DNA of 64,000 nucleotides from a virus. A program made the translations under genes and the position numbers. Shown here one piece after another: positions 23,672 to 32,665 of the stretch; position 1 is the stretch's first letter, and the number at the start of each line of letters is the position of its first letter. The stretch is taken from positions 1 through 64,000 of IMG/VR virus record IMGVR_UViG_3300032308_002775; one strand, written 5' to 3'. The notes below the pieces were generated by a model, which was given only the letters and a program-made list of their open reading frames with translations, was not told the DNA's origin and searched no databases.

Positions 23672-23720
23672 CGGTTGCGTATGTTAAAATAGGCCTGCCG
23701 CGGTCAACGCAGGGTTTTTT

Positions 23721-25016
23721 ATGCGCAGCTGGGATTTTTTTGACACGCTTTTTGGGCGGGCTTGCGGCGAGCCGTGGCGCGTGTTTGAGCTCATGGGCGG
23801 CGAAGAGTTTAAGCATTTTCGCCAACAGGCTGAGCAAAAAAGCGACAAGACGTTTGCGGGGATTTATCGGGAACTTCGGCAAATTACAAATTGGCCGCGG
23901 GAGCGCGTAGACACACTGCAGGCAGAAGAGTGGGAGTGGGAGCGGCGGCTTTCCTTTCCGATCTTTGAAAATGTACGCGACGTCAAATCGGGTGATTTGA
24001 TCATCACTGACACTTATTTTGACGCGCAGCAGGTTCGCGAGTTGGCAGACTGCATTCAGTTGCCCGCTGTAGACATCATTGCAACGTACGGCGGAAAACA
24101 TCACGGCACAGTTTGGAAAAATTTGCGCCGGTCGTCGCGCAAAATTGCAACACACACAGGCGATAATCGCCACGCAGACTATGACCAAGCGCGCAAACAC
24201 GGTTTTACGGCAATAAACTATCGCGCAGGTAGTTTTACGGGGCTTGAAAAAACTTTGATTATGGCGGGGCATTGGGACGTTGCAGGCTTAGCGAGAGCCG
24301 TGCGACTCCAAAACCCGCACCGGTCTCCAAGCTTGTTGTGGGGCGCGTGGAACAAACAGGCGCAGTACAATATTCCGTTCCTGTTGTTGTGCGCAGCAAA
24401 ATTACGGCAATATGTTGCCGATAACAATCACCAGCATGTTTGGTTTTTGTCGCGCGATACATGCCTGCTGCAGCGCGTTTTTATGGCGCTGTACCCCGAG
24501 GTTCCCGCGGAGACGTTCTACGCTAGTCGCCAGACGTATACGCACTCGTCGGAATCTTTTATTACCTATGCGCGCGCCGCAATCAACAAACCACGCCCGT
24601 TGTTTGTAGACCTTCAGGGCACCGGCAAAAGCGCGGCTGAATTTATCAACAAAACCCAAATTGCCTTGCCGTACCTGTTTTGCGCCATACCCAGCACGCT
24701 GGCCGCTTTTACGCCAGCATTGTATCGATTGAACTTTATCGGCACTGAGTTAGAAGTCTTCAATTACGATGTTCAAGGGCGGGTAATTGACGTGTTTGAT
24801 GGGCAGCCTGTGCGTGCGGCGCTGGAATACGATAAGAAAATAGTGCAGGCAAGCCACGCCGCAGTGGACTGCCTTTTGAAGCACATTTTTCGTTCGCCCG
24901 GAGCGCCAAGCAATGAGTTAATGGACATGTTGTTCCGGCATGTCCGCCGTCATGCGCCGCGAGAGTTGCTTAAACAACACCAGGCGCATCATCCATTTAT
25001 TCAATCAAAGGATTGA
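23721..25016 (+). CDS. HAD-like hydrolase of polysaccharide loci
   Basis: SWDFFDTL, TDTY, HTGDNRHAD, FLSRD, VDLQGTG. Confidence 0.7.
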   Translation: MRSWDFFDTLFGRACGEPWRVFELMGGEEFKHFRQQAEQKSDKTFAGIYRELRQITNWPRERVDTLQAEEWEWERRLSFPIFENVRDVKSGDLIITDTYFDAQQVRELADCIQLPAVDIIATYGGKHHGTVWKNLRRSSRKIATHTGDNRHADYDQARKHGFTAINYRAGSFTGLEKTLIMAGHWDVAGLARAVRLQNPHRSPSLLWGAWNKQAQYNIPFLLLCAAKLRQYVADNNHQHVWFLSRDTCLLQRVFMALYPEVPAETFYASRQTYTHSSESFITYARAAINKPRPLFVDLQGTGKSAAEFINKTQIALPYLFCAIPSTLAAFTPALYRLNFIGTELEVFNYDVQGRVIDVFDGQPVRAALEYDKKIVQASHAAVDCLLKHIFRSPGAPSNELMDMLFRHVRRHAPRELLKQHQAHHPFIQSKD

Positions 25017-25642
25017 GTGTGGACTACAGTCAGATTCCGGCGTTTTGTGTCAATTTGGCGGCGCGCGCTGACCGCTGGAGTCAAGCACAAATCGAATTTG
25101 CGCGTATTGCGTATCCGGTTACGCGGTGGTTTGCGGCGCATTATGCGCAGTCGCCTTATCCGGGTCTTTCTACTGGCGCCGCCGGGTGTCTAGACAGCCA
25201 CAAGGCGCTCTGGCGGCATTGTCTCAATGAAAACCTAGATATGATTGCTGTTTTTGAGGACGACGTCGTCTTTTCAAGTGATTTTGCCGCCGTGTTTCCA
25301 CTGGCCGCGGCCGAACTACCGGAAGATTGGGACGTTTGGCACCTCCACTCGTCAAAAGTGCCGCAGTCGGGCGCAGGCAAGTACCTCGTGCGCGCGCGCA
25401 ACAAGCTTTGGGGCACGCACGGCTATCTAATCCGCCGCCGCGGCTGCGAAAGGGCGCTAGCGCTGCCTGACGACGTACCGGCGGACTACCGCTTGAGTGA
25501 ATACCTGGATCAGCGGGGCGGGCAGGTGTACGCCACCCGGCAAGAACATGCCCTCGCGTTTCAACAGGGAGACGACTCCGACATTCCCCGTACGGCGCAG
25601 CTTGAGTTTTGGCGCGAACAGCGTCAACGATTTTGTCGTTGA
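25013..25642 (+). CDS. Glycosyltransferase family 25
   Basis: VNLAARADRW, GCLDSH, VFEDDV, GTHGYLI. Confidence 0.85.
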   Translation: MSVDYSQIPAFCVNLAARADRWSQAQIEFARIAYPVTRWFAAHYAQSPYPGLSTGAAGCLDSHKALWRHCLNENLDMIAVFEDDVVFSSDFAAVFPLAAAELPEDWDVWHLHSSKVPQSGAGKYLVRARNKLWGTHGYLIRRRGCERALALPDDVPADYRLSEYLDQRGGQVYATRQEHALAFQQGDDSDIPRTAQLEFWREQRQRFCR

Positions 25643-25746
25643 AACAATCCTTATGGGGCTAGGCACGCGCAGCATCTTGCGCTATTTGTAATGCTGCCCG
25701 CTCGCTGCGTCCTTTGACAACCTGGTTTTGCGCTCGTCTGTTAAGA

Positions 25747-26022
25747 CGTGATAAATTGGTGTTTACGGGCGAAAGTCCGTAAATACCGCGAGTTGGTCGT
25801 GGTGGCCGACTGGTTAGGTGCTATTTCGGGCTGCATGGATGCACCCGGGGTAGCTGGATCCGTGGTCAGAGCATGACGTGAACACGGTCGGAGGCGCGGT
25901 GAATGCCACACGGGGCGAAAATATGCCTTTGTAAGTCACCGCTTAACCCCGGTTCGCCGGGGTCGGACCTGTGGGTAGGGGATCCCAGGAGCTTGCGGTA
26001 TACCAACAGCACTCTTATCGCG
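25747..26022 (+). ncRNA. Candidate large structured non-coding RNA (unknown class)
   Basis: Closing stem CGTGATAA/TTATCGCG, 13-bp GAAA-capped hairpin, TTCG-capped hairpin and nested long-range stems in a ~400-bp intergenic gap. Confidence 0.65.
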
Positions 26023-26037
26023 CCGGGAGCCAGCGGG

Positions 26038-26376
26038 ATGTTTATGGACCTGACTCATCCAATCTGGGTATTTCTCAGCGCCTTTGGAGTGTCGTCTTTT
26101 GCGGGTCTGGCCACGTACTTGCGCTTTTCGCGTAAAATGACGCGGCTTGGGTTATTTAGCGCCATGTTAAACGCGGGCTGCCTGGGCCTGGCCATTGCGC
26201 TGTTCTGGTATGAACACTACCGGGATTCGGAGAACATTTACGGACTGATCGGCATCTGCGTGTTCGCTGGAATGAGCGGCTCAGCGGTGACCGACGTTCT
26301 GTGGTCGATTTTGTCGGGCGCCGGAATCAAGGTAAAAATCACGCACGAGCACAACAGGAGTAACGAAGATGACTGA
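26038..26376 (+). CDS. Holin-like multi-pass membrane protein
   Basis: Three hydrophobic segments and a charged C-terminal tail. Confidence 0.55.
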   Translation: MFMDLTHPIWVFLSAFGVSSFAGLATYLRFSRKMTRLGLFSAMLNAGCLGLAIALFWYEHYRDSENIYGLIGICVFAGMSGSAVTDVLWSILSGAGIKVKITHEHNRSNEDD

Positions 26377-26521
26377 CCGTAAACTTCGACACACGCTCTC
26401 CGCCGCTGCCTGGGCCTGCACGCTGTTGTGGTCGCTTGCTCTGCTGTCGTCTGCCATGGCTGTTTCGAGCCACGCGCGGGCGATTGCGGGCGCGCAGACC
26501 GAAACACGACCGCAACCATGA
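26369..26521 (+). CDS. Small membrane/signal-peptide protein (50 aa; not in the ORF track)
   Basis: AGGAG RBS; MTDRKLRHTLSAAAWACTLLWSLALLSSAMA...; ATGA overlap with the PAS gene. Confidence 0.55.
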   Translation: MTDRKLRHTLSAAAWACTLLWSLALLSSAMAVSSHARAIAGAQTETRPQP

Positions 26522-27084
26522 CTTTTTTTGCCGCCATGATGCTTGAATCGCCTTCTGGAAAGCGGCGCAGCTTTGCGGCCTGGTGGGCCGTAGCCGCGTC
26601 GATTCTTTGCGCCCTCCTGCTCTGGCGGTACGCCGCCGCCCTGAACGCTCGCGAGAGCGAGCTGGTCAAGATCATTAACTACTCAGCGGACGCCGTGATC
26701 GTCTGCGACCGCTCCGGCAAAGTGTTGTTCGCCAATGACGCCGTTTGGGCGATCACCGGCTATACCGAGCGGGATTTGGTAGACCACGGCTTATCACAAC
26801 TCATTCCAGATTACCTGCGCGACCGGCATCTCCAGGGCCTGGATCGCGCCAGGACGAAAAGCGACCGCGGCGTTGAAGGCATTCATTACCGCGCCGTCTA
26901 TCCGGTGCTGCGCAAGCAAGGTTCCCCAGTCATGTGCCTGGTAAGCGTAGGCAGCGTGCTTCATTTCGGCGGGCCGCAGTTTTTTGCGTTTATCACGCCG
27001 ATCGCCAACCTGCCGGAAGAAGAAGAAAAAAAGCCCGCAAACTCGGCTGATCTGTCAGTCATTCCGCCCTCGGATCTGAATTGA
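26518..27084 (+). CDS. Membrane-anchored stand-alone PAS domain protein
   Basis: TM helix, then IINYSADAVIVCDRSGKVLFANDAVWAITGY...LSQLIP. Confidence 0.8.
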   Translation: MTFFAAMMLESPSGKRRSFAAWWAVAASILCALLLWRYAAALNARESELVKIINYSADAVIVCDRSGKVLFANDAVWAITGYTERDLVDHGLSQLIPDYLRDRHLQGLDRARTKSDRGVEGIHYRAVYPVLRKQGSPVMCLVSVGSVLHFGGPQFFAFITPIANLPEEEEKKPANSADLSVIPPSDLN

Positions 27085-27094
27085 GGCGCTGGCC

Positions 27095-28720
27095 ATGGAC
27101 GGCTTTTCTATTCTCGATCCTTTGGCGTGGGACCCGGCGGCTATCAAGCTGCACCCCGCCTACGTCGCTGGCAACACGGCGGCTTGCCTGTCGAAGACCG
27201 GCGCCGCCAACGGCACTAACCACTATCTGGCCGGGCGGCTGTACGTCTCCAAGAGCGGCTGGCTGCTCTTGTCGGTGCCCAACGCCCTGGTGCGCGGCGT
27301 ATTCGACGCCATGACCGCTCCGGGCGCCGAATTACCGCTCGCGGGCGCGCTTAACGTTCCGGACGTTAAACCCGACCTGCTCAACGCCCACATCTCGGTG
27401 ATGACCGCCGAGGAGGTCAGCAAAATCGGCGGCGACAAAATCAACGAGCGAGGGCACAACTTTCACTACGCTTTGGGCCCAGTCAAAGAGATCACGCCCA
27501 AGAACATTGACGGCATCAGCCGCGTCTGGGCGATCCAGGTCGCCAGCCCCGAGCTGGCCGCCCTGCGCAAGAGCTACGGCCTGTCGGCCCTGCCCAACGG
27601 CGACCACCCGTTCCACATCACGGTGGCTGTACGCAGGAAGAACGTCCTGGGCGCCAACGAGGTTGCCAAAGTCGACGGCAGCCGCGGCGAGCTGAAGGCG
27701 GCAGCAGTCTACAACTTTGAAGGCGACGTCCAGGGCGTCAGCCTCCGCAAAACCTTGCACCGGGTGCTCGACGATTTGAATCGCCCCGGCGTGATGTACA
27801 ACAACGCGCGAACCAGTGAGGCCCGCGCGGTGATTCCAGGTTCTAAGATGCAGCGCGAAGAGGTGTTAGATCTGTTGCGTTTCTATCTGTCGACGCGCAG
27901 CGGCCGCAAAGGGCCGCTTCAGGAAGGCGTGGACTACAAGATCACGCCGCTGCCCCAGGAAAAAGAGAAGCTGCGCAAAGTTACCATGCGCCCCGCCGAT
28001 GTGCAGAAGTTCGTCCGCGCGCAAGGTTTCAACCAGCTGGCAGCGGAGAACGAGGACTATCAGAAGCAGTGGCTCGGCGAGCGTTACCGTCTGCAACCTG
28101 ACGCCCGCGGCAATCTTCGCGGCGCCGTGCCTGATCTGGCGCACAAACAGCTCTTTAGCGGCGAGCCGGTTTACAACTATCAGCTGACGCCCGGCTGGAA
28201 CGGCACAAAAGACGCCCAAGAACTGTTGTCCGGCGGCGAGGCGGACCACAAGCCCGATAGCGAGTTTCCCCAGGAGGCCTTGGCAGAAGGCAAGAAGCAT
28301 GAGCGCGAGCACACAGACAATGCAGAAGTCGCCAAAGAAATTGCCAAGGATCACCTGTCCGAAGACCCGGCCTACTACGAAAAAGCCGAAATCCTAGAGA
28401 AGCTGTCAAACAGCGTTTACTTCAACCAGGCGCTGCAGGCGTTTAATCCCGCCGCGATCAACGCGCCGATTGCGTACGATCCCAACAAGCCAGTTTTTGA
28501 GAATCTCAGGAATCAGCTCGGCGAGGCCAAGCGCCGCGGCGACTTCATTCTGCAGACGCAGCGCAACCAACGGGCTTGGCAATCGGCGCTCGACCCGCAG
28601 TACCGTTACCAGCTGGCGATGCAGGCGATCCGCGGCGAGATGCCCCAGCCGAGCGTCACTGACCAGCTCATCGAGATGTACGGCGACCAGGCGCTAGCTC
28701 GTACCGGACTTGGGAGATAA
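27095..28720 (+). CDS. Multidomain protein: 2H phosphoesterase + acylphosphatase-like + EH..D...IAKDHL.E...YY domain
   Basis: HISV and HITV motifs; FEGDVQGVSLR; EREHTDNAEVAKEIAKDHLSEDPAYY. Confidence 0.6.
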   Translation: MDGFSILDPLAWDPAAIKLHPAYVAGNTAACLSKTGAANGTNHYLAGRLYVSKSGWLLLSVPNALVRGVFDAMTAPGAELPLAGALNVPDVKPDLLNAHISVMTAEEVSKIGGDKINERGHNFHYALGPVKEITPKNIDGISRVWAIQVASPELAALRKSYGLSALPNGDHPFHITVAVRRKNVLGANEVAKVDGSRGELKAAAVYNFEGDVQGVSLRKTLHRVLDDLNRPGVMYNNARTSEARAVIPGSKMQREEVLDLLRFYLSTRSGRKGPLQEGVDYKITPLPQEKEKLRKVTMRPADVQKFVRAQGFNQLAAENEDYQKQWLGERYRLQPDARGNLRGAVPDLAHKQLFSGEPVYNYQLTPGWNGTKDAQELLSGGEADHKPDSEFPQEALAEGKKHEREHTDNAEVAKEIAKDHLSEDPAYYEKAEILEKLSNSVYFNQALQAFNPAAINAPIAYDPNKPVFENLRNQLGEAKRRGDFILQTQRNQRAWQSALDPQYRYQLAMQAIRGEMPQPSVTDQLIEMYGDQALARTGLGR

Positions 28721-32161: not shown

Positions 32162-32665
32162 ATGAAGAAGCTCATTTGGCCTGCCGGGATCCTGCTCGCC
32201 GTTGCCATGCTGTTTCCCAACGGCATCTCTATCAAGCTGCCCAGCGGCCCCGTGACGCCCGTGGCGCCGGTGAACCCGGTCACGCCCGTGGTGCCGGAGC
32301 CGGTGGTCAAGGACGCCAAGACCGCGGAGCTGCTCGCCAGCGCGTCGCCCGCGGACAAGGGGCGCATCCGAGGCATTTACTCGGCCATGGCGACGGTCTT
32401 GCAGCGCGACAGCAAGACGGGGCTCATCAAGACGACGGAGCAGGCGGCGCTGTGGCAGGCGAACACGCTCAAGGCCGCCGTGGACGACTCGATGCGGGGC
32501 AAGTACCCCGGACTCGACGTCGCCATCGAGGCGGTCTTTGACAAGAAGATGCGCGAGCTGGATCCCGAAGGAAAGCGCGACCCCAAGGACGTGCAGTCGG
32601 TCGACGACGCGGTGCGCGCCAAGTTGATCGAGGCCTGTACGCTGATCGCGGATTCGGCCCGTTAA
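32162..32665 (+). CDS. Exported/membrane-anchored hypothetical protein
   Basis: Signal-like N-terminus, PVTPV repeats. Confidence 0.7.
   Translation: MKKLIWPAGILLAVAMLFPNGISIKLPSGPVTPVAPVNPVTPVVPEPVVKDAKTAELLASASPADKGRIRGIYSAMATVLQRDSKTGLIKTTEQAALWQANTLKAAVDDSMRGKYPGLDVAIEAVFDKKMRELDPEGKRDPKDVQSVDDAVRAKLIEACTLIADSAR

Follow-up and report, generated by a model that had tools for sequence, protein, structure and literature searches.

A structured plus-strand RNA of about 215 nt with a conserved multibranch fold occupies a noncoding gap in the genome of an uncultured phage. The DNA analyzed, referred to here as the window, comprises the initial 64 kb of an IMG/VR virus record that measures 153.7 kb and is estimated to be 75% complete. 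The gap, approximately 395 nt without a credible ORF, lies between the gene for a GT25-type glycosyltransferase and that for a 112-aa membrane protein; the latter is followed by genes for a PAS-domain protein and a 2H-SAK/DUF5661 phosphoesterase, all three being on the plus strand (Table 1). The RNA family is absent from Rfam 15 and represents a new fold within a known kind of element, the structured mRNA leader. With respect to its function, we favor with modest confidence that it is a new cis-acting control leader of the downstream gene, which encodes a holin-like protein. The original prediction, made from the sequence of the window, had placed a structured RNA at positions 25747 to 26022; such an RNA is real, whereas the limits and about half of the stems assigned to it did not stand.

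Identification and distribution of the RNA family

Twelve related viral loci were reached via the membrane protein, and all of them contained the element, with 71 to 88% identity; the GT25 neighbor, used as a search handle, led to no related viral loci. The family was widened by a covariance model (R1) plus two scans for invariant motifs. Full-length copies of the core were retrieved with model R1 at 63 IMG/VR loci and at 21 loci on JGI metagenome contigs, and the copies of the RNA collapse to 50 distinct sequences. The RNA is present as a single copy in its source genome, and the family was seen only in uncultured phage contigs of about 200 kb. (i) The 185,579 species-representative bacterial and archaeal genomes scanned gave eight motif matches, none of which was the RNA. 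(ii) The GenBank phages gave no match, either by DNA or by the holin-like protein.

Candidate structured RNAs from the same data source, 10,006 in total, have been compiled by Fremin, Bhatt and Kyrpides (2023; PMC10690425). As described in the text of that article, they include covarying intergenic elements that are found consistently 5' of one gene, like the RNA described here. A holin-associated motif is not named in that text, and the candidate tables that accompany it may still list the family.

Architecture of the fold

The closing helix was placed at CCGCGAGTT/AGCTTGCGG by RNAalifold on plain MAFFT alignments, and the structure was then refined by hand. In the resulting architecture, P1 encloses six helices, namely, P2, P3, P4, P5/P5a, P6, and P7 (Table 1). 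Indels blur the structure-blind alignment at the base of the long P3 arm, and the pairs that close the P3 tip are conserved in sequence. P7 has a consensus of 6 bp, C(C/U)(U/C)G(U/C)G with C(A/G)C(A/G)(G/A)G, of which at least seven fully complementary versions exist; in the clade of the window, it contains a single T-C mismatch. Its loop, L7, ends in an invariant GGGGAT (25978 to 25983).

TABLE 1 Features of the RNA locus, its flanks, and the phage csrA homologue (positions refer to the window unless stated otherwise)
Feature	Position	Strand	Evidence or remarks
GT25-type glycosyltransferase gene	25013-25642		Immediately 5' of the RNA-bearing gap
Terminator-like hairpin, T-rich tail	25667-25682	+	Consensus scan; putative end of the GT25 transcription unit
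CTTTGACAA motif (CTCTTTGACAA in most relatives)	25712-25720	+	Upstream flanks of most of the 49 members
Promoter-like element	25728-25757	+	TTGCGC 25728-25733, 18-nt spacer, TG 25749-25750, TAAATT 25752-25757
P0, extra 5' hairpin, GAAA loop	25758-25787	+	Subclade of the window only
Conserved RNA core (P1 to P1')	25785-25999	+	Full-length matches of covariance model R1
P1, ACCGCGAGTT/AGCTTGCGGT	25785-25794/25990-25999	+	10 bp; 99.4% of cells paired; double changes in 7/10 pairs
P2 hairpin, GGTCG/CGACT	25795-25811	+	7-nt loop TGGTGGC; 100% paired; double changes in 2 pairs
Pseudoknot, P2-loop GTGGC/P5 internal-loop GCCAC	25802-25806/25905-25909	+	5 bp; 100% paired on alignment A6
J2/3 joining strand, GGTTAGG	25812-25818	+	Nearly invariant; alignments A5 and A6
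P3, long variable arm	25820-25854	+	Double changes at every tested basal pair
P3 tip, GCATGGATGC (GCAGGGAUGC in most relatives)	25833-25842	+	CsrA-type hairpin, GGA in loop
P4, CCGTG/CACGG	25860-25887	+	Encloses invariant GTCAG and a variable loop; 100% paired; 2 double-change pairs
J4/5, GGAGG	25890-25894	+	GG-N-GG invariant; alignments A5 and A6
P5, GCGGTGA/TCACCGC, plus P5a	25896-25942	+	Internal loop AATGCCACA//TAAG; P5, 100% of cells paired, double changes in 6/7 pairs; P5a (25912-25917/25924-25929), 93.8% paired, double changes in 5/6 pairs
P6 hairpin, UUCG-type loop	25946-25963	+	Double changes in 7/7 pairs
P7, CCTGTG/CCCAGG	25968-25973/25984-25989	+	97.6% paired; double changes in 4/6 pairs
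Linker	26000-26037	+	Sequence; RBS GGGAG 26025-26029, GGGATG 26035-26040 across the start codon
Holin-like gene	26038-26376	+	112 aa, three hydrophobic segments, charged C-terminal tail
PAS-domain protein gene	26428-27084	+	PF00989, E = 6.8e-10; clade of the window only
2H-SAK phosphoesterase/DUF5661 gene	27095-28720	+	PF22547, PF18905; conserved end of the unit
Phage csrA homologue	Genome 101016-101219, outside the window (locus L137:1501-1704)		PF02599

The contact between the P2 loop and the internal loop of P5 is, as judged from the alignments, a kissing pseudoknot. Its two strands are fully complementary in all 50 distinct sequences, with a C-G pair replaced by U-A in eight of them and a G-C pair replaced by A-U in one. 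An all-versus-all covariation screen for tertiary pairs was too noisy, owing to clade structure, and this pseudoknot was the sole candidate from it that survived inspection. Two other contacts were considered and rejected: (i) a pairing of L7 (GGAU) with J3/4 (AUCC), which is complementary only in some clades and does not covary, and (ii) a two-layer G-quadruplex formed by GGUUAGG and GGAGG, which is broken by GGUUAGC in the L033 clade.

Covariation, strand, and coding potential

The refined fold was tested on a fresh, structure-blind MAFFT alignment (A6) of 35 distinct members. On this alignment, 93.3% of the cells pair, versus 35 to 45% when the partners are slid by 1 to 3 columns; double (compensatory) changes occur in 42 of the 60 pairs, and the covariation score was reached by none of 500 shuffles. 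The model-based alignment agrees with this structure-blind picture. Covariation among homologs had been proposed as a check on the RNA, as had a comparison of its folding energy with that of shuffled sequences, and the latter also came out in its favor: the plus strand of positions 25747 to 26022 folds with -124 kcal/mol (z = -4.3), and none of 200 shuffles was as good. For the minus strand of the same segment, z was -2.7. The plus strand is fixed by P1 and P5a, in which U-G and G-U pairs are conserved; read from the opposite strand, these pairs would turn into A-C mismatches.

No ORF is conserved across the RNA; a frame stays open through the core in just 8 of 50 members. The median identity to the window is 74% for the RNA core versus 70% for the adjoining coding DNA. 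We considered whether the locus could be a chance fold, or an element conserved at the protein-coding or DNA level instead of as RNA. A chance fold would agree with the fact that the three long-range stems of the first drawing, the outer stem included, do no better than chance; it is contradicted by the compensatory changes, which extend to the pseudoknot, and the ORF and covariation analyses likewise speak against a coding element. The probability of either is, in our view, close to negligible.

The comparative fold also permits an appraisal of that first drawing, in which all quoted strings sit at the coordinates assigned to them. Covariation backs four of its elements: CCGTG/CACGG corresponds to P4, GCGGTGA/TCACCGC to P5, ACCCCGG-TTCG-CCGGGGT to P6, and the hairpin with the ATGGAT loop to the upper part of P3. 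The three long-range stems, namely, the terminal stem 25747/26015, GGTGCT/AGCACT, and AGCTGGATCC/GGATCCCAGGAGCT, are not supported, as only 55 to 83% of their cells pair, which is no better than in shuffles. The 8-bp hairpin at 25791 to 25811 was drawn in the wrong register because four of its bases (AGTT) belong to P1; the true helix is P2. A 13-bp hairpin with a GAAA loop at 25758 to 25787 does exist (P0) but is confined to the subclade of the window, where it shows compensating changes; it has no counterpart in other clades (alignment A1). The string CGTGATAA overlaps a conserved extended -10-like motif and is therefore probably promoter DNA, not RNA. As far as it went the drawing was incomplete, P1, P7, and the pseudoknot having been overlooked.

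Association with the holin-like gene

The RNA and the holin-like gene are strictly linked when the association is approached from either side. Starting from the RNA, the same gene follows on the same strand, 11 to 56 nt after P1, at each of the 59 loci whose downstream sequence is long enough; starting from the gene, all 80 loci fetched by protein profile carry a full-length RNA just upstream. The proposal that the RNA has the position of a 5' leader thus holds for every relative.

The holin-like protein forms more than 300 clusters, all of them unnamed, on contigs of up to 206 kb. Inspection of its sequence shows three hydrophobic segments followed by a charged tail, which would suit a class I holin; the holin call itself is weak. 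It is based on a match to phrog_6384 ("holin") at E = 9.8e-5, a weak match found for 5 of 19 members, and on the nearest Atlas clusters, which belong to holin superfamily III (cosine, 0.90 to 0.91); there was no Pfam or PDB match for the protein. Control of the lysis genes by the RNA, as suggested originally, we infer solely from its position.

The unit that follows ends in a conserved manner with the 2H-SAK/DUF5661 gene, whose cluster is present in 34 neighborhoods. In 9 of 20 relatives (for example, L208:1976-2049 and L156:1996-2068, plus seven others), a tRNA-Asn(GUU) gene lies 130 to 200 nt 3' of the holin-like gene and before the 2H-SAK gene. It was not found in two relatives from the clade of the window, nor at the matching place in the window, which is occupied by the PAS gene. 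A spare tRNA beside a 2H enzyme of the RNA repair type could serve in defense against anticodon nucleases. A 50-aa ORF (26369 to 26521) overlaps the end of the holin-like gene, and a counterpart of 60 to 65 aa is found at the same place in 31 relatives; its product is possibly a small membrane partner.

Promoter-like signals and the linker

The terminator-like hairpin that may end the GT25 transcription unit has a GCTAyATTT-like tail, which was seen again in relatives. Downstream of it, TTGCGC and TAAATT, separated by 18 nt and with a TG before the latter, constitute a better promoter candidate than the TTGACA at 25714 that had been pointed out originally: no -10 sequence is located 16 to 18 nt from this TTGACA or from the CTTTGACAA motif that contains it. 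A sequence of the extended -10 type, TGnTAnnnT, is present in 44 of the 49 members. In 34 of these, its end lies 6 to 9 nt ahead of P1, and in the clade of the window, it is found 27 to 28 nt before P1, with P0 in between. Genome-wide, TGnTAnnnT is not enriched (7 copies versus 4.7 expected). The CTTTGACAA/CTCTTTGACAA motif lies 30 to 60 nt 5' of the -10-like element and may be the site of a regulator or a signal for a phage polymerase; CTTTGACAA has just two copies in the window, at 25712 to 25720 and 32536 to 32544.

A consensus scan of the window revealed no terminator-like site between the RNA and the gene. Since there is no such site before the gene and a promoter-like motif is present upstream, the RNA is most likely the 5' end of an mRNA. 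We also considered P1 together with a U-run as a terminator; this was unconvincing, since the run comes 4 to 8 nt after the long-range helix and is missing in the window. The linker between P1 and the start codon varies from 11 to 56 nt among relatives, and different clades share no conserved sequence in it. In the largest clade (L025/L036/L018 type), the start region is without a Shine-Dalgarno sequence and has a conserved A(A/G)GC(A/G)GUUA about 10 nt before the AUG.

Comparison with known RNA classes

At gathering thresholds, no Rfam 15 family matched anywhere in the 64-kb window. A search of the RNA region with E values of up to 10 returned only two chance matches to microRNAs, both with E > 1, and in 20 diverse relatives, the only match to Rfam 15 was the downstream tRNA. 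ARAGORN detected a single tRNA in the window, a tRNA-Met at 1873 to 1945, and neither a tRNA nor a tmRNA at the RNA locus. The novelty claimed at the outset is thus upheld with respect to Rfam 15, and so are the statements that the element is not a tRNA, a tmRNA, or a group I intron.

These results bear on the possibility that a known class, or a variant of one, was missed, be it a group I intron, T-box, RNase P, tmRNA, or cobalamin, lysine, or M-box riboswitch. Strings resembling known consensus elements do occur, namely, GGUGAAUGCC with GCCAC (cobalamin), GUUAGGUG (M-box), GGAGGCGC (lysine), and UGGN (T-box); these similarities are leads only. Given that no Rfam gathering score was reached in the window or the 20 relatives and that ARAGORN finds nothing at the locus, we regard a missed class as very improbable. 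Two classes were rejected individually. (i) For a group I intron, there is no Rfam intron match, the genes upstream differ among relatives, and an intron is not required, since the downstream protein starts with a conserved Met of its own. (ii) A T-box was suggested by UGGN in the loop of P2 together with the tRNA-Asn gene downstream in 9 of 20 relatives; there is no match to RF00230, the downstream gene encodes a membrane protein, and UGGN is taken up by the internal pseudoknot.

Proposed mechanism and the riboswitch alternative

In the model that we favor, transcription would probably start at the extended -10-type promoter just 5' of the RNA, and the fold would therefore begin at, or close to, the 5' terminus of the transcript. 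The RNA would constitute the 5' end of an mRNA for the holin-like protein and the genes behind it, which in the window are those for the PAS protein and the 2H phosphoesterase, and it would set the translation or stability of a membrane protein that could be lethal. A CsrA dimer, of phage or host origin, that grips the invariant GGGAU/UGGAU loops on P3 and P7 would be the likeliest effector; the main alternative input would be a small molecule that binds as a ligand to the invariant junction (GGUUAGG and GG-N-GG). Transcription, cis action, CsrA binding, and the direction of control are all elements that we infer from the sequences. No expression platform was recognized, in that neither a terminator nor a helix that pairs with the RBS recurs across clades, and the predicted accessibility of the start region was intermediate and inconsistent. 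One candidate platform, in which the linker sequence GGUUAC, a copy of the P3 3' strand, competes for the P3 5' strand, was rejected: it fits one clade, whereas in others (L018 and L058) the linker sequence does not change along with P3.

Covariation of this extent combined with a pseudoknot and invariant junctions usually means a precise molecular job. One such job would be that of a metabolite- or ion-sensing riboswitch, in which the junction and the pseudoknot form a pocket whose ligand stabilizes P1 and alters translation of the holin-like operon. The lysine, cobalamin, and SAM-I aptamers resemble the RNA in being P1-closed elements of the 5' UTR, with variable arms, an invariant junction or joining strands, and a loop-loop or pseudoknot contact, and its complexity is similar to that of large aptamers. 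The location at an mRNA 5' end and the strict tie of a conserved fold to one gene, seen at 59/59 and 80/80 loci, also fit a riboswitch. It differs from these aptamers in that the gene controlled would be a phage holin-like gene, a recognizable platform is missing (neither a terminator nor a recurring RBS-sequestering helix was found), the downstream genes offer no clue to a metabolic ligand, and no Rfam riboswitch matched, even at E values of up to 10. These differences make a riboswitch unlikely in our judgment. If the input were nevertheless a small molecule, the family would be a new riboswitch class, and a viral one.

CsrA as a candidate effector

The cis-acting leader model receives its most concrete effector from the P3 tip, which reads GCAUGGAUGC in the window and GCAGGGAUGC in most relatives (GCA(G/U)GGAUGC in every member) and consists of a 3-bp stem with an NGGA loop. 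The SELEX consensus for CsrA is reportedly RUACARGGAUGU (Dubey et al. 2005), and we take the P3 tip to fit this consensus hairpin, with GGA in the loop. GGA is present in the P3 tip in 49 of 50 sequences and in L7 in all 50, and both loops share GGGAU. Furthermore, the phage itself encodes a canonical 67-aa CsrA (MLVLSRK...VRLGIEAP...VSVVRAEL) that scores 74.5 bits with PF02599, above the Pfam cutoff, and CsrA homologues are encoded in all five complete relatives of 197 to 205 kb. As CsrA and the RNA co-occur inside one phage lineage, this is not independent evidence.

Known CsrA/RsmE-binding RNAs, such as the glgC, flhDC, and moaA leaders and the CsrB and RsmZ sponges, share several features with the phage RNA: (i) a short hairpin with a GGA loop (CA-N-GGA-N-G); (ii) a second GGA loop, here invariant and suited to a dimer; (iii) a CsrA gene in the same genomes; and (iv), in the case of flhDC, GGA sites near the 5' end and away from the RBS. 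In flhDC, 5'-proximal binding of CsrA alters the fate of the mRNA. The differences are also considerable. Conserved GGA loops number only two in the phage RNA, and none of its sites over the RBS is conserved. In the clade of the window, additional GGA motifs are found in the RBS (GGGAG, 26025) and across the start codon (GGGAUG, 26035), whereas in most clades, GGA is absent from the RBS/start region in the linker, unlike in classical CsrA-repressed leaders. GGA is not enriched in the RNA (median of 7 versus 5.6 expected), nor is CANGGATG enriched in the window. In addition, the candidate sites are part of a rigid, covarying, pseudoknotted fold of seven helices, and we know of no Csr target or sponge with such a fold. 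The fold is more ornate than known CsrA sites require, which counts against the CsrA model. A CsrA dimer that clamps the P3 and P7 loops is possible as an effector, and we put it forward tentatively.

A stand-alone RNA as an alternative to a leader

The two identical protein-type loops would suit a dimeric partner also if the RNA acted on its own, as an RNP scaffold, a CsrA sponge or decoy, or a ribozyme that is cotranscribed with the gene or processed from the front of the transcript. The fold is ornate and compact and extends from the predicted transcript start to a clean P1 end, its conservation is at least equal to that of the neighboring gene, and many members have a U-rich run 4 to 8 nt after P1. 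There is also precedent, as GOLLD and ROOL are large phage-borne RNAs. Like the RNA described here, GOLLD (RF01998) and ROOL (RF03087) are phage encoded, elaborate, and strongly covarying; they measure roughly 600 to 800 nt, in contrast to about 215 nt for our RNA, which has no Rfam match, and they are found near tRNA clusters, whereas our RNA is fixed in place ahead of a single protein gene. This fixed position weighs against independent action, since the RNA is never seen away from the holin-like gene and always lies within 56 nt of its start; moreover, it is single copy and is not followed by a canonical terminator. A sponge in particular would be atypical, since known sponges of the CsrB/RsmZ type contain 4 to 22 GGA motifs, whereas this RNA has two conserved GGA loops, no overall GGA enrichment, and no terminator after it. 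We therefore rate a stand-alone RNA as improbable.

Potential significance

Very few structured RNAs of this kind are known in phages, to our knowledge, and holin genes usually need tight timing. The one-to-one tie between the RNA and the holin-like gene extends across a whole lineage of uncultured 200-kb phages. A more far-reaching reading, which we regard as rather doubtful, is that the family is a new class of phage riboregulator, the pseudoknotted leader being a dedicated receptor of the phage CsrA dimer or of a small signal molecule. It would then gate translation of the holin-like protein, together with the tRNA-Asn/2H-phosphoesterase unit, and would act as a posttranscriptional timer or checkpoint for lysis or counterdefense in giant phages; with CsrA as the input, no RNA target of a phage CsrA would have been defined earlier. 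What CsrA does when encoded by a phage was first tested in a knockdown study in 2025 (PMC11879866). The invariant CsrA-type hairpin on the phage leader offers a concrete RNA with which this role can be probed.

Genes upstream of the RNA

The genes 5' of the RNA vary among relatives. In many of them, the RNA is adjoined upstream by a gene for a Volactin-family actin-like protein (PF25216, E = 6.6e-63; L014:3022-4023, minus strand), which is conserved in 56 neighborhoods. In the window, a second extended -10-like motif, TGTTAAAAT, is located at 23682 to 23690, within the short gap before an ORF of 431 aa (23721 to 25016).
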